Shown here: in pieces, positions 1 through 6,081 of the stretch
How positions within the stretch are numbered: the stretch's first letter is position 1
How the letters are laid out: each line of letters begins with the position of its first letter
Virus record (IMG/VR): IMGVR_UViG_2645727640_000005
Coordinates: 1-6,081 of that record
Source of the DNA: a virus
Lineage: Duplodnaviria; Heunggongvirae; Uroviricota; Caudoviricetes
Length of the DNA stretch: 6,081 nt
Direction: 5' to 3' (one strand)
Made by a program: the position numbers and the translations under genes
The notes under the pieces: model-generated
Database searches by the model: none
Told to the model about the DNA's origin: nothing
The model's input: only the letters and a program-made list of their open reading frames with translations

Positions 1-49
1 GCATGACAAAGTCATCGGGCATTATCTGAACATAAAACACTATCAATAA

Positions 50-136
50 GTTGGAGTCATTACCCGCCTTATCGACATACTTAATCAGCCAGGAGTCCCA
101 AAAAATGGATCAAACACTTATGGCTATCCAGACTAA
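50..136 (+). pseudogene. cIII: cIII 3' remnant (C-terminal ~23 codons of lambda-like CIII, no start codon in window)
   Basis: Frame-2 translation of 65..136 gives [23 protein letters not shown], matching the C-terminus of lambda CIII as I recall it. Upstream, the same frame has an in-frame TAA at 47..49 and no ATG, and no frame of 1..64 encodes the CIII N-terminus or amphipathic helix. The kil ATG sits at the cIII 3' end, as in lambda. Confidence 0.4.
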
Positions 137-248
137 ATTCACTATCGCCACTTTTATTGGCGATGAAAAGATGTTTCGTGAAGCCGTCGACGCTTATAAA
201 AAATGGATATTAATGCTGAAACTGAGATCAAGCAAAAGCATTCACTAA
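105..248 (+). CDS. kil: Kil, host cell-division (FtsZ) inhibitor, 47 aa
   Basis: ATG at 105 inside the 51..248 track ORF gives a 47-aa product ([12 protein letters not shown]...[10 protein letters not shown]), the length and sequence I recall for lambda Kil. It sits upstream of and overlaps gam, as in lambda. The track ORF's 5' extension begins at TTG and is probably not used. Confidence 0.8.
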
Positions 249-619
249 CCCCCTTTCCTGTTTTCCTAATCAGCCCGGCATTTCGCGGGCGATATTTTCA
301 CAGCTATTTCAGGAGTTCAGCCATGAACGCTTATTACATTCAGGATCGTCTTGAGGCTCAGAGCTGGGCGCGTCACTACCAGCAGATCGCCCGTGAAGAG
401 AAAGAGGCAGAACTGGCAGACGATATGGAAAAAGGCCTGCCCCAGCACCTGTTTGAATCGCTATGCATCGATCATTTGCAACGCCACGGGGCCAGCAAAA
501 AAGCCATTACCCGTGCGTTTGATGACGATGTTGAGTTTCAGGAGCGCATGGCAGAACACATCCGGTACATGGTTGAAACCATTGCTCACCATCAGGTTGA
601 TATTGATTCAGAGGTATAA
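203..619 (+). CDS. gam: Gam, RecBCD inhibitor (full-length GamL form, 138 aa)
   Basis: 138-aa ORF that matches lambda Gam along its whole length as recalled ([20 protein letters not shown]...[10 protein letters not shown]). An internal ATG at 323 preceded by AGGAG (311..315) corresponds to the short GamS start. Synteny is kil-gam-bet-exo. Confidence 0.95.
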
Positions 620-624
620 AACGG

Positions 625-1410
625 ATGAGTACAGCACTCGCAACGCTGGCAGGGAAGCTGGCTGAACGTGTCGGCATGGATTCTGTCGACCCACAGGAAC
701 TGATCACCACTCTTCGCCAGACGGCATTTAAAGGCGATGCCAGCGATGCGCAGTTCATCGCATTGTTGATCGTCGCCAACCAGTACGGCCTTAATCCGTG
801 GACGAAAGAAATTTACGCCTTCCCTGACAAGCAGAACGGCATCGTTCCGGTGGTGGGCGTTGATGGCTGGTCCCGCATCATCAACGAAAACCAGCAGTTT
901 GACGGCATGGACTTTGAACAGGACAACGAATCCTGCACATGCCGGATTTACCGCAAAGACCGCAATCATCCGATCTGCGTTACCGAGTGGATGGATGAAT
1001 GCCGCCGCGAACCATTCAAAACCCGCGAAGGCAGAGAAATCACCGGACCGTGGCAGTCGCATCCCAAACGGATGTTACGGCATAAAGCCATGATTCAGTG
1101 TGCCCGTCTGGCCTTCGGATTTGCTGGTATCTATGACAAGGATGAAGCCGAGCGCATTGTCGAAAATACTGCATACACTGCAGAACGTCAGCCGGAACGC
1201 GACATCACTCCGGTTAACGATGAAACCATGCAGGAGATTAACACTCTGCTGATCGCCCTGGATAAAACATGGGATGACGACTTATTGCCGCTCTGTTCCC
1301 AGATATTTCGCCGCGACATTCGCGCATCGTCAGAACTGACACAGGCCGAAGCAGTGAAAGCTCTTGGATTCCTGAAACAGAAAGCCACTGAGCAGAAGGT
1401 GGCAGCATGA
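625..1410 (+). CDS. bet: Bet (Red-beta) single-strand annealing protein, 261 aa
   Basis: 261-aa ORF matching lambda Bet as recalled ([35 protein letters not shown]...). GAGG at 611..614 lies upstream of the ATG. Its stop overlaps the exo start in an ATGA junction (1407..1410). Confidence 0.95.
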
Positions 1411-2087
1411 CACCGGACATTATCCTGCAGCGTACCGGGATCGACGTGAGAGCTGTCGAACAGGGGGATGATGCATGGCACAAATTACGGCTCGGCGTCA
1501 TCACCGCTTCAGAAGTTCACAACGTGATAGCAAAGCCCCGCTCAGGAAAAAAGTGGCCTGACATGAAAATGTCCTACTTCCACACCCTGCTGGCTGAGGT
1601 TTGCACCGGTGTGGCTCCGGAAGTTAATGCTAAGGCGCTGGCCTGGGGAAAACAGTACGAGAACGACGCCAGAACCCTGTTTGAATTCACTTCCGGCGTG
1701 AATGTTACTGAATCCCCGATCATCTATCGCGACGAAAGTATGCGCACCGCCTGCTCTCCCGATGGTTTATGCAGTGACGGCAACGGCCTTGAACTGAAAT
1801 GCCCGTTTACCTCCCGGGATTTCATGAAGTTCCGGCTCGGTGGTTTCGAGGCCATAAAATCAGCTTACATGGCCCAGGTGCAGTACAGCATGTGGGTGAC
1901 GCGAAAAGATGCCTGGTACTTTGCCAACTATGACCCGCGTATGAAGCGTGAAGGCCTGCATTATGTCGTGATTGAGCGGAATGAAAAGTACATGGCGAAT
2001 TTTGACGAGATGGTGCCGGAGTTCATCGAAAAAATGGACGTGGCACTGGCTGAAATTGGTTTTGTATTTGGGGAGCAATGGCGATGA
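1407..2087 (+). CDS. exo: Exo (Red-alpha) 5'-3' dsDNA exonuclease, 226 aa
   Basis: 226-aa ORF matching lambda exonuclease as recalled ([40 protein letters not shown]...GEQWR). ATGA overlap with bet, as in lambda. Confidence 0.95.
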
Positions 2088-2245
2088 AGCATCCTCACGA
2101 TAATATCCGGGTAGGCGCGATCACTTTCATCTACTCCGTTACAAAGCGAGGCTGGGTATTTCCCGGCCTTTCTGTTATCAGAAATCCACTGAAAGCACAG
2201 CGGCTGGCTGAGGCGATAAATAATAAACGGGGGCTGTATGACTGA
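2084..2245 (+). CDS. small ORF (53 aa) coupled to exo; positional equivalent of lambda orf60a, with a different 3' end
   Basis: ATG 2084..2086 overlaps the exo stop (ATGA). It translates to [53 protein letters not shown]. Lambda has orf60a in this position with the same 4-nt overlap. The ORF is shorter than 60 codons and its end overlaps the methyltransferase start, consistent with a mosaic junction near 2180..2240. It is below the size cutoff of the ORF track. Confidence 0.45.
2150..2176 (+). terminator. putative intrinsic terminator (tL3-like) downstream of exo
   Basis: Hairpin GGCTGGG (2150..2156), loop TATTT, CCCGGCC (2162..2168), seven pairs including one G-T wobble, followed by the T-rich run TTTCTGTT. 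Lambda is known to have tL3 shortly downstream of exo; identity with tL3 is from position only. Confidence 0.35.
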
Positions 2246-2795
2246 TTTCACCGGAAGCAATACTCCTGCCGAACATCGCGACAGCTGGCGCACACCACCA
2301 GAGATTTTTGCTGCGCTTAATGCAGAGTTCGTTTTTCAACTTGATGCTGCCGCCAGCGAAAAAAACCGACTATGTCGGCTTTTTATCTCACAGGAGCAGA
2401 ACACATTAACCACTTCATGGCCTGAAGCAATGGGATATGCCTCTGGTTATGTCTGGTTGAATCCACCATACAGCAATATTTCCCCTTTTGTGAAAAAGGC
2501 AGCCACTGAAAACAAATTCAGTAGTGTGGGATGTGTAATGTTATTGCCTGCTGACACATCTGTCGGATGGTTTCATGAAGCGATACAAACCGCCAGTGAG
2601 GTCAGATTCATCACGGCAGGACGACTGGCATTTATTAACCCACTCACGGAGAAACCCGTCAGTGGAAATAATAAAGGCTCGATGCTCATTATCTGGCACC
2701 CATACCCCCGTACACACTGCCACTTTACGACCGTTGATCGTGGAGAGTTGATGGCGTTCGGCTCAAGGATTCTTGCCCGTCGGGAGGCTGCATGA
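2238..2795 (+). CDS. orphan phage-type DNA N6-adenine methyltransferase (phage Dam family), 185 aa
   Basis: 185-aa ORF with an N-terminal WRTPPEIF motif, an FQLDAAAS motif and the catalytic NPPY tetrad (WLNPPYSN), the hallmark of the small phage Dam methyltransferase family. GGGGG lies 4 nt upstream of the ATG. No restriction endonuclease partner is visible in the window. Confidence 0.85.
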   Translation: MTDFTGSNTPAEHRDSWRTPPEIFAALNAEFVFQLDAAASEKNRLCRLFISQEQNTLTTSWPEAMGYASGYVWLNPPYSNISPFVKKAATENKFSSVGCVMLLPADTSVGWFHEAIQTASEVRFITAGRLAFINPLTEKPVSGNNKGSMLIIWHPYPRTHCHFTTVDRGELMAFGSRILARREAA

Positions 2796-2875
2796 CAACC
2801 ACGGAATGCATTTTTCTGGCAGCGGGCTTCATATTCTGTGTGCTTATGCTTGCCGATATGGGACTTGTTCAATGA
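2792..2875 (+). CDS. possible 27-aa hydrophobic peptide, start and stop both in ATGA overlaps
   Basis: ATG 2792..2794 overlaps the methyltransferase stop (TGA 2793..2795). The ORF encodes MTTTECIFLAAGFIFCVLMLADMGLVQ and its TGA (2873..2875) overlaps the ATG (2872..2874) of the next gene. The hydrophobic core could form one transmembrane helix. It is below the track cutoff and could be chance. Confidence 0.3.
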   Translation: MTTTECIFLAAGFIFCVLMLADMGLVQ

Positions 2876-3087
2876 CACCTCAGCAGGAAAACGCCCTTCG
2901 CAGCATTGCCCGTCAGGCTAATTCTGAAATCAAAAAAGCCAGACAGCAGTTTCCGGATAAAAACGTCGATGACATTTGCCGTAGCGTACTGAAGAAGCAC
3001 CGCGAAACGGTAACGCTGATGGGATTCACACCGACTCACTTAAGTCTGGCAATCGGTATGTTAAACGGCGTCTTTAAGGAACGGTGA
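2872..3087 (+). CDS. hypothetical protein, 71 aa
   Basis: Inside the 2773..3087 track ORF. ATG 2872 gives MTPQQENALRSIARQANSEIKKARQQ...GVFKER. An alternative ATG at 2806 would give 93 aa, and the track start at 2773 is TTG. No motif recognised. The start choice is uncertain. Confidence 0.5.
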   Translation: MTPQQENALRSIARQANSEIKKARQQFPDKNVDDICRSVLKKHRETVTLMGFTPTHLSLAIGMLNGVFKER

Positions 3088-3107
3088 ACATGAAAAGCAA
3101 AATCATC

Positions 3108-3133
3108 AGGGAGCTACAGGCTCCTTTTTTATT
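3108..3133 (+). terminator. putative intrinsic terminator or attenuator between genes
   Basis: GGAGC (3110..3114), loop TACAG, GCTCC (3120..3124), immediately followed by TTTTTT (3125..3130). The stem is short, 5 bp extendable to 7 with a G-T pair. It lies within a possible 29-aa ORF (3090..3179). Confidence 0.4.
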
Positions 3134-3185
3134 ATTCGCATTCACCCTCAAGCGTATTAACCAACAATTCAGGGATTAATGAAAG

Positions 3186-3407
3186 ATGGCAGATATCATT
3201 GATTCAGCATCAGAAATTGAAGAATTACAGCGCAATACAGCAATAAAAATGCGTCGCCTGAACTACCAGACTGTATCCGCAACTCATTGTTGTGAGTGTG
3301 GCGATCCGATAGATGAACGAAGACGCCTGGCAGTTCAGGGTTGTCGGACTTGTGCAAGTTGCCAGGAGGATCTGGAGCTTATCAGTAAACAGAGAGGTTC
3401 GAAGTGA
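3186..3407 (+). CDS. TraR/DksA-family C4 zinc-finger protein, 73 aa
   Basis: Cys at residues 35, 38, 56 and 59 give C-x2-C-x17-C-x2-C with a GDPIDERRR segment between the pairs, the pattern of the phage and plasmid TraR/DksA zinc-finger family. Its stop overlaps the GTG start of the next gene. Confidence 0.7.
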   Translation: MADIIDSASEIEELQRNTAIKMRRLNYQTVSATHCCECGDPIDERRRLAVQGCRTCASCQEDLELISKQRGSK

Positions 3408-4090
3408 GCGAAATTAATTATCAGGCACTGCGTGAAAAGGCAGAGAAAGCAACTAAAGGAAGCTACATCGTAGGGCATACATCTGTTAACCAGCACGGCA
3501 ATTTAACAGGAGTTTTTGTTTGCCAAAAATGGAAAGGAGAACCCGGTGGTGTGATTGCGGAATGTCATGTTAACTGCCTGGTTGAAACAGATGTTCAGGC
3601 TTATGCAAACGCTGAATTTATTGCTGCTTTTAATCCAAATGTTGCGCTGGCACTACTGGATGAACGGGAAAGAAACCAGCAATACATCAAACGCCGCGAC
3701 CAGGAGAACGAGGAGATTGCGCTTACGGTTGGGAAGCTGCGCGTTGAGCTGGAAGCCGCAGAGAAGCGCAACGCAAAATTACAAAGCGAGAATGCATACA
3801 TCCGCAACCGGTACAAAGAACTGGACCTGTTAATCGGGAAAAACATTCTGGTCATGCAGGCTGCCATTATCGAATGGCAATCGACTGGCGACGCTAAAAG
3901 CGGACTGGCATGGATTTATAACACACTGTTTGGCCCAGGCGAATTGCCGGACGAATCTGAGAAAGATGCTCAGGCCTACTTTAATCGCAAATATGCACCG
4001 ATTGACGAAAAGCTTATGGCGCTTCACAAGTGGTTTTGGGAACAAAGTGAAGCCAAGCGCGCCGCTGGCATTCGCATCAAAGGAGAGTGA
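3404..4090 (+). CDS. Ead/Ea22-like coiled-coil protein, 228 aa
   Basis: GTG start at 3404 with AGAGAGG 6 nt upstream. The N-terminus (INYQALREKAEKATKGS) and the NAEFIAAFNPNVALALLDE segment resemble the conserved motifs of prophage Ead/Ea22-like proteins as I recall them. The central region (LTVGKLRVELEAAEKRNAKLQSENAYIRNRYKELD) is a heptad-like coiled coil. Confidence 0.6.
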   Translation: MSEINYQALREKAEKATKGSYIVGHTSVNQHGNLTGVFVCQKWKGEPGGVIAECHVNCLVETDVQAYANAEFIAAFNPNVALALLDERERNQQYIKRRDQENEEIALTVGKLRVELEAAEKRNAKLQSENAYIRNRYKELDLLIGKNILVMQAAIIEWQSTGDAKSGLAWIYNTLFGPGELPDESEKDAQAYFNRKYAPIDEKLMALHKWFWEQSEAKRAAGIRIKGE

Positions 4091-4091
4091 G

Positions 4092-4607
4092 ATGGCGTTA
4101 ACACACCGAGAACTCTGTCAGATTGCGTACAAGTTCCTTAAGCGCAACGGGTTCAAGGTTTGCTTTCATGACCGCTTTATAGCCGTAACCAGTACCGGAG
4201 AACAGCCAGATGCTATGGGATTCAGAAATTCAGCATCATGCCTGATAGAGGCGAAATGTTCTCGTGCTGACTTGTTGGCAGATAGAAAAAAGCGTTTTCG
4301 TAAAAATCCGTCTCTTGGAATGGGAGACTGGCGATTCTTTATTAGTGAGCCGGGAACTATTTCAATTGAGGATTTACCACCTGGCTGGGGATTACTTCAC
4401 GTTGTTAACGGAAGAGTACGGAAAGTACATGGATGGCCCAAGGGGAATTGCTGTTGGGGTAACCCTGAGGATAAACCTTTTATTGGGAATAAGCAGGTTG
4501 AATGCGATTACATGTTGTCTGCCTTAAGGCGCATGGAGTTGAGAGGGCACCTTAATGAAATATATGACGGTGTAATTGTTAATAAGAAAGAAGGAAACGC
4601 GGCATGA
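4092..4607 (+). CDS. hypothetical protein with PD-(D/E)xK nuclease-like motif, 171 aa
   Basis: ATG 4092 with GGAG 6 nt upstream. The track ORF 3930..4607 extends 5' in another frame of the upstream gene and is not used. The N-terminal 60 aa have a helix, two strands, PD at residue 40 and hhEAK at 53-55 (FIAVTSTGEQPD...SCLIEAK), the canonical PD-(D/E)xK arrangement. The C-terminal 100 aa are Trp/Cys-rich (GNCCWGNPED, VECDY) and not recognised. A nuclease function is inferred from the motif only. Confidence 0.55.
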   Translation: MALTHRELCQIAYKFLKRNGFKVCFHDRFIAVTSTGEQPDAMGFRNSASCLIEAKCSRADLLADRKKRFRKNPSLGMGDWRFFISEPGTISIEDLPPGWGLLHVVNGRVRKVHGWPKGNCCWGNPEDKPFIGNKQVECDYMLSALRRMELRGHLNEIYDGVIVNKKEGNAA

Positions 4608-5491
4608 TCACTATTACCAAAGGGCGACTGCTGACAATCAAACAGTGGCGCGAAACATACGGACCTGGTAGCAACGTTGTACTGCCAGCAGAAGAAGCGG
4701 AAGAACTGGCACGAATTGCTCTGGCAGCGCTGGAAGCCGAGCCGATAGGTTTCCGTTGCAGGCGCAATGATAACCTTGGTGATTGGAGTTACGTATATCA
4801 TCGAGAGCCAGATGATTTTGAGCGCAAACATTTAGTGATAGAGGGCATTTACGCCGCCCCTCCAGCACCAGTAGTACCGGAAGAAAAACCAATGCCTAAT
4901 CCTCTTAGCATGTACGCGGTTGATGCTGTTGCCGCTATTGCAGAGGTGAGAGGCTGGAACGCCTGCCGTGCCGCTATGCTTCAGTCCGGAAACTTTCGGG
5001 AAAACAAGAATTCGTCAACCAATAATTTTCGGGAAATCGCGGAAACGTCAACCAACTATCCGGTAATTCCTAGTGAGGTGTTGTCCGCAATCCTGAAGGT
5101 TGCCAAGATTCGTGCCGATGTCGATGATTTTGACGGTGACAGGCGAGGTATCGGTGATTGTCTGGATGAGGCTGAGCAAGAGCTTATCGTTACCATTAAC
5201 AAATATGCCAGTCAGTTGGCAGCAGAACCTATAGCGCCTAATGACGTTCGAGAGCAGACAGCCATTCCACAAGTTCCGGTGACTCCGGATGGTTGGATAA
5301 GCTGTAGTGAGCGAATGCCGAATACCAAAACAGCCGTTCTTGTTGCCGTGGAGTTTGACAGGAAAGGTGACTGGCGAATGAAATGGGCTACTTACATCCC
5401 GGGGCATCCTGACGCTAATGATGGGTGGATAATTCCTGGTGCGTCGTGGAAACCGTCACACTGGATGCCGCTACCAGAGCCTCCACTTTGA
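4604..5491 (+). CDS. DUF551-type prophage protein, 295 aa, with internal tandem repeat
   Basis: ATG 4604 overlaps the upstream stop (ATGA) and AAGGAA lies 7 nt upstream. The C-terminal ~70 aa (WISCSERMPNTKTAVLVAVEF...GWIIPGASWKPSHWMPLPEPP) match the DUF551 signature of prophage proteins as I recall it. The N-terminal half is acidic and helical. Confidence 0.75.
   Translation: MITITKGRLLTIKQWRETYGPGSNVVLPAEEAEELARIALAALEAEPIGFRCRRNDNLGDWSYVYHREPDDFERKHLVIEGIYAAPPAPVVPEEKPMPNPLSMYAVDAVAAIAEVRGWNACRAAMLQSGNFRENKNSSTNNFREIAETSTNYPVIPSEVLSAILKVAKIRADVDDFDGDRRGIGDCLDEAEQELIVTINKYASQLAAEPIAPNDVREQTAIPQVPVTPDGWISCSERMPNTKTAVLVAVEFDRKGDWRMKWATYIPGHPDANDGWIIPGASWKPSHWMPLPEPPL
4991..5056 (+). repeat. 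imperfect 33-bp tandem direct repeat (2 copies) in frame within the DUF551 gene
   Basis: Copy 1 (4991..5023) AACTTTCGGGAAAACAAGAATTCGTCAACCAAT and copy 2 (5024..5056) AATTTTCGGGAAATCGCGGAAACGTCAACCAAC match at 25 of 33 positions. They encode NFRENKNSSTN and NFREIAETSTN. Confidence 0.8.
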
Positions 5492-5587
5492 AAGCGAAGC
5501 TTATACATATCTTTTACATCAGCAATCTATTGTTAATCTCCAATCAATGTTACGTTGTCATCTCACTCATGCTTTGGAGTTAGTGAT

Positions 5588-5767
5588 ATGTCTTGTCCAA
5601 AATGCGGTTCTGGAAATATTGCAAAAGAAAAAACAATGCGTGGATGGTCTGGTGATTATGTGTGCTGCGATTGCGGATACAACGACTCTAAAGACGCATT
5701 TGGAGAGCGTGGTAAAAACGAGTTTGTCAAAATTAATAAAGAACGCGAAGGCAACGAAAAAAGCTAA
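5588..5767 (+). CDS. small zinc-ribbon protein, 59 aa
   Basis: ATG 5588 with GGAG (5575..5578) upstream. The track start at 5555 is TTG. Cys at residues 3, 6, 26 and 29 give C-x2-C-x19-C-x2-C, and the C-terminus is Lys/Glu-rich. Codon usage is AT-rich. It is followed by a terminator and sits immediately upstream of xis, in the position of lambda's small unnamed ORF and ea8.5. Confidence 0.55.
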   Translation: MSCPKCGSGNIAKEKTMRGWSGDYVCCDCGYNDSKDAFGERGKNEFVKINKEREGNEKS

Positions 5768-5830
5768 TTTATTATTCATATATGAAAACAATGTAACCAA
5801 TATTCGAATTGAAGAACTGAAAGAACACCA

Positions 5831-5852
5831 AGCCGCCTGATGGCGGTTTTTT
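5831..5852 (+). terminator. putative intrinsic terminator upstream of xis
   Basis: CCGCC (5833..5837), loop TGAT, GGCGG (5842..5846), extendable by A-T and G-T pairs, followed by TTTTTT (5847..5852). Confidence 0.5.
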
Positions 5853-5879
5853 CTTGCGTGTAATTGCGGAGACTTTGCG

Positions 5880-6081
5880 ATGTACTTGACACTTCAGGAG
5901 TGGAACGCTCGCCAGCGACGCCCAAGAAGCCTTGAAACAGTTCGTCGATGGGTGCGCGAATGCAGGATATTCCCTCCTCCGGTTAAGGATGGCAGAGAGT
6001 ATCTGTTCCACGAATCAGCGGTAAAGGTTGACTTAAATCGACCAGTAACAGGTAGCCTTTTGAAGAGGATCAGAAATGGGA
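5880..6081 (+). CDS. xis: Xis excisionase, 5' partial (first 67 codons; runs off window end)
   Basis: ATG 5880 with GGAG 8 nt upstream. Translation MYLTLQEWNARQRRPRSLETVRRWVRECRIFPPPVKDGREYLFHESAVKVDLNRPVTGSLLKRIRNG matches lambda Xis (72 aa) as recalled. It is absent from the ORF track because no stop lies within the window. Confidence 0.9.
   Translation, partial: MYLTLQEWNARQRRPRSLETVRRWVRECRIFPPPVKDGREYLFHESAVKVDLNRPVTGSLLKRIRNG

Follow-up and report, generated by a model that had tools for sequence, protein, structure and literature searches.

The protein encoded at positions 4092-4607 of the stretch of viral DNA examined in this study is probably a stand-alone, catalytically competent endonuclease of the PD-(D/E)xK superfamily. 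The stretch, referred to here as the window, comprises 6,081 nucleotides (IMG/VR virus record IMGVR_UViG_2645727640_000005, positions 1 to 6,081) and is the early-left arm, or exo-xis region, of a lambdoid, Shiga toxin (Stx)-type prophage in which every gene lies on the plus strand; the coordinates given below are all on that strand and follow window numbering, where position 1 is the first letter. The coding sequence of this MmcB/Hjc-like protein, stop codon included, was taken from its open reading frame (ORF) and translation: it runs from an ATG at 4092 to a TGA at 4605-4607, both read from the sequence, and specifies 171 amino acids. That the protein adopts the PD-(D/E)xK fold and is homologous to the MmcB-like and Hjc nucleases is, in our judgement, close to certain. 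What is new is an uncharacterised family that appears to be the sister of a known kind of enzyme, and that is large, unnamed and carried by phages and conjugative plasmids.

Fold and active site

An AlphaFold2 model built on 34 homologues (predicted local distance difference test, 88.6; predicted template modelling score, 0.82) contains the alpha-beta-beta-beta-alpha-beta core of the PD-(D/E)xK superfamily, with its elements in the order helix 5-18, strand 23-25, a hairpin of strands 41-45 and 48-54, helix 58-64, strands 80-85, 100-105 and 108-113, and helix 134-150. In the model, D40 marks the start of the second strand, and E53 and K55 come where the third one ends, which is the canonical arrangement for this superfamily; judging by the strand register, D40 would lie opposite E53 across the beta2-beta3 hairpin. 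A Foldseek search of the PDB with the model returned structure 3dnx (E 5e-6, probability 1.0, template modelling scores 0.57/0.65), and among the phage proteins of BFVD some of the structure matches at probability 1.0 carry the name "MmcB-like DNA repair protein". A restriction-endonuclease-like fold had been proposed in an earlier note on this DNA, and the predicted structure, the 3dnx match and the canonical positions of D40, E53 and K55 bear that proposal out. The order of secondary structure that it gave was right in part: helix 5-18 and the strands at 23-25 and 48-54 are present in the model, but residues 29-40, where a strand ending at D40 had been seen, form coil, and D40 instead begins the strand at 41-45.

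Residue conservation was measured over 344 distinct family sequences, to which all the conservation percentages below refer. E37, D40, E53 and D60 are present in 100% of these and K55 in 99%, while position 27 is always D or E; the family as a whole thus conserves the acidic residue with which beta2 begins, as well as the (D/E)xK motif in beta3, and the GEQPD40 ... LIE53AK55 motif that the earlier note had picked out is real and far beyond chance. The catalytic core (residues 27-55, at 4170-4256), made up of D/E27, the G36-E37-x-P39-D40 segment that starts beta2 and the E53-x-K55 segment that ends beta3, aligns with RVDVMG...IECK of 3dnx and the MmcB-like proteins. It is followed by the helix motif S57-R58-x-D60-(F/L)-x-x-D64-x-x-K67-x-F-R70 (4260-4301), which is 94-100% conserved and which, in the alignments to 3dnx and to the MmcB-like profile, is common to MmcB-like proteins as SRADFQ(A/S)D.K. 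The segment G76-M-G78-D-W-R81-F-F (4317-4340; G76 98%, G78 100%, R81 99%), which leads into beta4 (80-85 in the model), aligns with WCDRYFW of the MmcB-like proteins, and L95-P96-x-G-W99-G100-L101-L102 (4374-4397; P96 95%, W99 99%, G100 98%, L101 98%), which leads into beta5 (100-105), aligns with their LLPxExGLI. The C-terminal helix, residues 134-150 (4491-4541), carries E137 (99%), S143, and R146 and R147 (both 95%), and its SALRRM string aligns with AARRLq.

Residues 56-150 of the protein therefore align with the MmcB-like domain, so that there is no separate extension but only the remainder of the same nuclease domain with two insertions, at residues 66-78 and 114-133. The architecture suggested at the outset, a minimal core joined to about 110 unrecognised residues, is wrong. 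The second insertion (GWPKGNCCWGNPEDKPFIGN; 4431-4490) is specific to the family, poorly conserved and gapped against the MmcB-like proteins in the profile alignment described below; it corresponds to the stretch that had been called Trp/Cys-rich and contains "CCW". The protein does have 4 Trp and 7 Cys, but of these only W99 is near-invariant (W115 is found in 55% and W122 in 78%), and the low conservation of C120 (17%) and C121 (13%) means that there is no conserved cysteine cluster. A metal or redox site formed by Cys and Trp within residues 114-138 was considered and rejected because C120, C121 and C138 (54%) are all poorly conserved. The richness in these residues is mostly a local trait of the enterobacterial branch.

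Affinity with MmcB-like and Hjc proteins

The relationship of the family to known nucleases was examined with a profile of 50 diverse members and a comparison set of 80 MmcB-like genes from Rhodobacteraceae genomes. The family profile found 3dnx at E 1.6e-4, with Hjc proteins just below significance, and the part of 3dnx that is aligned is itself PF06319 (MmcB-like), at E 3e-32. Aligned by hhalign, the family and the 80 MmcB-like sequences gave a probability of 98.2% and an E value of 4.5e-14 over 124 columns (query residues 13-150), matching the motifs GExPD with RVD, IE(A/C)KxSRxDFxxDxK, (D)WRFF with CDRYFW, LPxGWGLL with LPxExGLI, and SALRRM with AARRLq. Homology to the MmcB-like proteins thus extends over the whole domain by both profile-profile and structural comparison. 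Taken together, these comparisons make the window family a sister group of the MmcB-like proteins (PF06319/COG5321) and a more distant relative of archaeal Hjc. The nuclease identity that had been proposed is upheld at the level of fold and active site, and the nearest characterised relatives, MmcB and Hjc, are repair and recombination nucleases. The relationship is recoverable by standard remote-homology tools, and some depositors already label phage relatives "MmcB-like".

The window protein had no match in Pfam or NCBIfam scans, in which no family member reaches a cutoff, and a search of the PDB with the single sequence returned only noise. Fourteen of the 50 members gave sub-threshold matches to PF06319 (best E 0.0015; 12.3 bits for an Ackermannviridae relative, against a gathering cutoff of 22 bits), and 30 of the 50 gave sub-threshold matches to the Hjc family PF01870 (best E 1.3e-4; 17.7-20.4 bits for relatives, against a cutoff of 21.1 bits). 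Full-length matches were found to two PHROGs of "unknown function", phrog_9263 (E 1e-120, residues 3-171) and phrog_631 (E 1e-92, residues 1-170), together with a weak match to PHROG 5429, a "DNA repair protein".

DUF1052 (PF06319, COG5321; structure 3dnx) has been classed among the PD-(D/E)xK families and linked to the junction resolvases of archaea (PMC3424549, PMC1189080). Its named member, MmcB of Caulobacter crescentus, is an SOS-induced PD-(D/E)XK endonuclease that is required for resistance to mitomycin C and cisplatin and has been proposed to act with translesion polymerases on crosslinks (reviewed in PMC9578287). The MmcB-like proteins, which include 3dnx (SPO1766 of Ruegeria/Silicibacter pomeroyi), have in common with the window family the string D...ECKxSRxDFxxDxK...(D)RFF/YFW...LPxxxGLL...ARR(L/M). 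Compared to these proteins, the window family is only about 24% identical, adds the invariant residues E37 and H5, and has the insertions at 66-78 (KxFRxxPxxGMG) and, in variable form, at 114-133. The two also differ in where they occur, as the window family is found on phages, prophages and plasmids while DUF1052 is mostly alpha-proteobacterial (PMC3424549), and in their setting, as MmcB is under SOS control and acts on the damage caused by mitomycin C (PMC9578287) while the window gene belongs to a phage early operon. Hjc (PF01870; PDB 1hh1, 4tkk, 2eo0, 1ob8) belongs to the same superfamily and has the same N-terminal layout of helix, strand, G..PD and ExK; however, the alignment to Hjc is limited to the first ~60 residues, the C-terminal half differs, and the matches in Pfam stay below the cutoff.

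Distribution and gene neighbourhoods

The family is widespread: besides 307 close homologues, the representatives of 2581 clusters at 50% identity match at E<=1e-3, mostly from end to end, and for 1290 of these clusters the match reaches E<=1e-10. Members were found in 928 of 5426 complete E. coli genomes and in 643 phage records, including those of Stx and other lambdoid phages, Klebsiella temperate phages, Vibrio phages, Ackermannviridae and a Tenacibaculum jumbo phage. Nearly all of the phage records annotate the protein as hypothetical, with an occasional "endonuclease" or "DNA repair protein". Some intact copies are obscured by annotation: a copy 100% identical to the intact ORF (L001:9001-9516, NZ_CP148435.1) is labelled a 'frameshifted' pseudogene that covers its first 179 bases only, and a 99.4% identical intact copy (L170:5001-5516, NZ_CP091040.1) is annotated from an internal start as a protein of 111 amino acids, with the catalytic motif lost. 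A cluster of 111-amino-acid proteins (P0065) has 645 member sequences.

In several lytic phage groups that are unrelated to one another, the gene is found beside or close to primase or helicase genes. The homologue lies immediately upstream of the primase gene in Ackermannviridae, two genes upstream of it in 157-kb Vibrio phages, and between the DNA helicase and DNA primase genes in MAR10-like Vibrio phages, while on a metagenomic phage contig it follows the DnaB and DUF3987 genes. The Vibrio phage X29 homologue lies 3' of a DUF551 gene in a block for recombination and replication that also holds genes for exonucleases, RusA, Dam and SSB. Loci with homologues in a primase or helicase context include L003:3869-4480, L004:3980-4588, L165:2480-3094, L166:2396-3172 and L177:2877-3386.

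A census of Pfam families among 149 immediate neighbours at 80 IMG/VR loci showed no fixed partner. DUF551 and NinX were each found five times; NinG, dATP/dGTP pyrophosphohydrolase, the ResIII helicase domain (PF04851) and the Helicase_C domain (PF00271) three times each; and NinB, C5 methylase, SNF2 and Ea22 twice each, with SSB, RusA, YbcO and IstB/DnaC-like proteins among the single cases. Databases also contain a few fusions, in which the nuclease domain is joined with a TniB-like ATPase, a dATP/dGTP pyrophosphohydrolase or an Ea22 N-terminus (P0144, 428 amino acids; P0197, 243; P0121, 245); as the pyrophosphohydrolase and Ea22 are also neighbour families, the fusions may be artefacts of read-through or gene calling. 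Rap/NinG and RusA, nucleases from the nin region of lambdoid phages that resolve junctions and branches, do the type of work proposed below for the window family and occupy the same kind of niche, that of small early accessory genes for DNA metabolism, but have unrelated folds and belong to unrelated families. NinG adjoins the family gene three times and RusA once, and RusA is three genes away in X29; these genes co-occur with the family gene instead of replacing it, which suggests that their jobs are probably not identical.

Plasmids are a further habitat, with 864 records carrying a family member, 411 of them conjugative. On three IncF plasmids that were inspected, a 66-68% identical homologue occurs in the leading region, where its first base is also the last one of psiA and the genes run ssb, parB-like, psiB, psiA, homologue, hok ... 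traM (L169:5977-6486, on the E. coli IncFII plasmid pTB182A-5; L172:3977-4495; L173:3977-4495). This junction between psiA and the homologue is rare, being present at high DNA identity in only 25 plasmid records, and is not general among psiA-carrying plasmids. Plasmids can also carry near-identical copies of the window gene, as does the inspected example, a 97.7-kb non-mobilizable IncY plasmid with a block of Ea22, nuclease and DUF551 genes.

Possible roles of the nuclease

The role that we consider most likely, with a chance close to even, is that of a metal-dependent, structure-specific DNA endonuclease acting on intermediates of replication, recombination or repair. Enzymes of the MmcB/Hjc clade are divalent-metal-dependent endonucleases, and Hjc cleaves four-way junctions. 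The nuclease gene would be transcribed early along with the rest of the early-left block. Its product would use D/E27, E37, D40 and E53 to bind divalent metal, either one ion or two, and K55 would be the catalytic lysine, while the conserved residues R58, K67, R70, R81, R146 and R147 would hold the DNA. Cleavage would be guided by the structure of the DNA (junctions, forks, flaps, or damaged or crosslinked DNA) and not by its sequence, and the enzyme might serve to clear or repair such intermediates as the DNA of the element begins to replicate and recombine in a newly entered cell. The contexts in which the gene is found, beside primase and helicase genes, among the Red and Nin recombination genes and after ssb-psiB-psiA on plasmids, fit this role. 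Several points weigh against it. All members fall under the Pfam cutoffs for MmcB-like and Hjc proteins, and we found no biochemical or genetic data for any member of the family, with the exo-xis papers mentioning neither the nuclease nor the DUF551 protein. The proposed substrate is drawn from relatives and neighbours only, and the PD-(D/E)xK superfamily acts on a very wide range of substrates, RNA among them. In addition, some of the same phages already have a junction resolvase (RusA in X29, and NinG adjacent in 3 loci), so that simple resolution of Holliday junctions may be redundant.

There are several potential alternatives to a role in processing the element's own DNA. The accessory regions that house the gene, namely the lambdoid exo-xis and nin regions and the IncF leading region after psiB-psiA, are places where genes for anti-defence gather, and such regions have been found to be rich in counter-defence genes (PMC11541004). 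Since orphan DNA methyltransferases are also frequent neighbours (Dam in the window, and C5 methyltransferases), it is plausible, if on balance unlikely, that the protein is an early-made nuclease that destroys host-immunity nucleic acid, host DNA or a competing element and does not repair the DNA of its own. The presence of a Lar-like ORF in the window and the patchy occurrence of the family among E. coli genomes point in the same direction. However, a PADLOC scan of the nuclease gave no match (no dedicated anti-defence library was searched), the nearest relative that has been characterised works in DNA repair (PMC9578287), and the gene is a fixed companion of primase across the Ackermannviridae and in other lytic phages, a position that fits core DNA metabolism better. 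The protein could also be read as a free-standing homing endonuclease or another selfish nuclease, which spreads by cutting alleles that lack its gene: it is a small stand-alone nuclease with variable neighbours, and in some lytic phages its gene lies between those for helicase and primase, which are essential for replication, a kind of site that homing endonucleases often occupy. Nevertheless, the family's position and sequence are maintained throughout entire phage families and from phages to plasmids and prophages, it has no extra DNA-recognition domain, and its relatives MmcB and Hjc are guided by structure and not by sequence; moreover, Dickeya phage XF4 has a separately annotated homing endonuclease (F-LimV) between the homologue and the primase gene. 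We therefore regard homing as very unlikely. Least likely of all is an inactive protein that retains the nuclease fold and binds DNA or protein, regulating the decision between lysis and lysogeny as other exo-xis genes do. Folds of the PD-(D/E)xK type are sometimes catalytically dead, and passages in the exo-xis literature describe ea22, orf60a, orf61 and orf63 as influencing lysogenisation and induction; yet every catalytic residue of the family is 99-100% conserved over 344 sequences from very different elements, which would not be expected of a dead enzyme.

The position that the gene takes on different elements, in the early operons of temperate phages, beside primase in lytic phages and with psiB-psiA in the leading region of conjugative plasmids, is in each case one that suggests a time early after entry, and perhaps a common establishment function. 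A general 'establishment nuclease' of mobile DNA, to which we would give only a small chance, would act in the first minutes after entry, on conjugative plasmids through co-transcription with psiB-psiA, and remove a specific DNA or RNA-DNA structure that triggers host surveillance or blocks the first round of replication. Candidate targets would be RecA-loaded gaps, D-loops or R-loops arising from host immunity, and the primer or flap intermediates of the conversion from single-stranded to double-stranded DNA. If true, this would be a previously unrecognised entry function shared among mobile elements and distinct from crosslink repair of the MmcB type.

The family is common, and its carriers include Shiga-toxin phages and IncF plasmids for resistance or virulence, yet its members are annotated only as "hypothetical"; its placement beside MmcB and Hjc supplies both an activity to test and obvious residues to mutate. 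Should the enzyme assist the establishment of incoming DNA, it would bear on the spread of Stx phages and conjugative plasmids; if it is just another repair nuclease of the accessory kind, what is gained is an improved annotation.

Operon setting in the window

The best DNA matches of the window are Stx1 and Stx2 converting phages, and a related E. coli prophage has the gene order cIII, kil, gam, bet, exo ... Ea22, nuclease gene, DUF551, xis, int. The window contains bet (625-1410), exo (1407-2087), a phage Dam methyltransferase gene (2238-2795), a small ZapA-like ORF (2869-3087), a TraR/DksA zinc finger gene (3186-3407), a gene for an Ead/Ea22-like protein (3404-4090; Pfam PF13935, E 5e-35, and the RefSeq annotation of the related prophage), the nuclease gene, a gene for a DUF551 protein of 295 amino acids (4604-5491; Pfam match E 6e-21) and a small zinc-ribbon ORF of 70 amino acids (5555-5767). 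The nuclease gene is thus part of a tightly packed block 3' of bet and exo on the same strand. It is preceded by a Shine-Dalgarno sequence, AAGGAG, at 4080-4085, read from the sequence and 6 nucleotides 5' of the ATG; the Ea22 stop codon, TGA at 4088-4090, falls between the two, with one base separating it from the ATG. The gene is real, intact and under purifying selection. Nonsynonymous divergence (dN) from 71-75% identical homologues is ~0.23; because synonymous sites are saturated, only dN is given.

The stop codon of the nuclease gene and the start codon of the DUF551 gene overlap as ATGA at 4604-4607 (read from the sequence), which indicates that the two genes are probably co-transcribed and may be translationally coupled. 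The only terminator-like hairpins on the plus strand are at 3108-3126 and 5830-5849, so that none falls within the gene block from 3186 to 5767. Promoter-like matches in the window show no excess (8, against 7.5 expected by chance), with two weak ones on the plus strand, and an Rfam scan of the window gave no match.

The functional coupling to DUF551 that the earlier note implied was not supported by the survey of other loci. The DUF551 domain is an occasional neighbour, found within three genes of the homologue at 12 of the 80 IMG/VR loci and as 5 of the 149 immediate neighbours, and an obligatory partnership was rejected on these counts. The 295-amino-acid downstream protein is itself a mosaic in which DUF551 covers only residues 230-294, while residues 1-130 match PHROGs 660 and 5117. 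Its N-terminal module is present at 18 of the 80 loci, in nine of them immediately downstream of the nuclease gene; the module is thus commoner than the DUF551 domain as an immediate neighbour, though still in a minority of loci.

Other genes of the window gave minor observations. In the Ea22 protein, residues 116-216 (3749-4051, in the C-terminal half) match the PADLOC model PDLC02890, 'DpdH', at E 1e-36, which may point to a shared domain or to a model that is mislabelled or contaminated. The ORF at 2869-3087 is annotated as 'cell division protein ZapA' in the related RefSeq prophage, and its match to Pfam ZapA here is below the cutoff (E 0.012). The zinc-ribbon ORF has sub-threshold Pfam matches to an HVO_2753-like zinc-binding protein (E 4e-5) and to Lar (E 1e-4), and the terminator-like hairpin at 5830-5849 lies just 3' of it.
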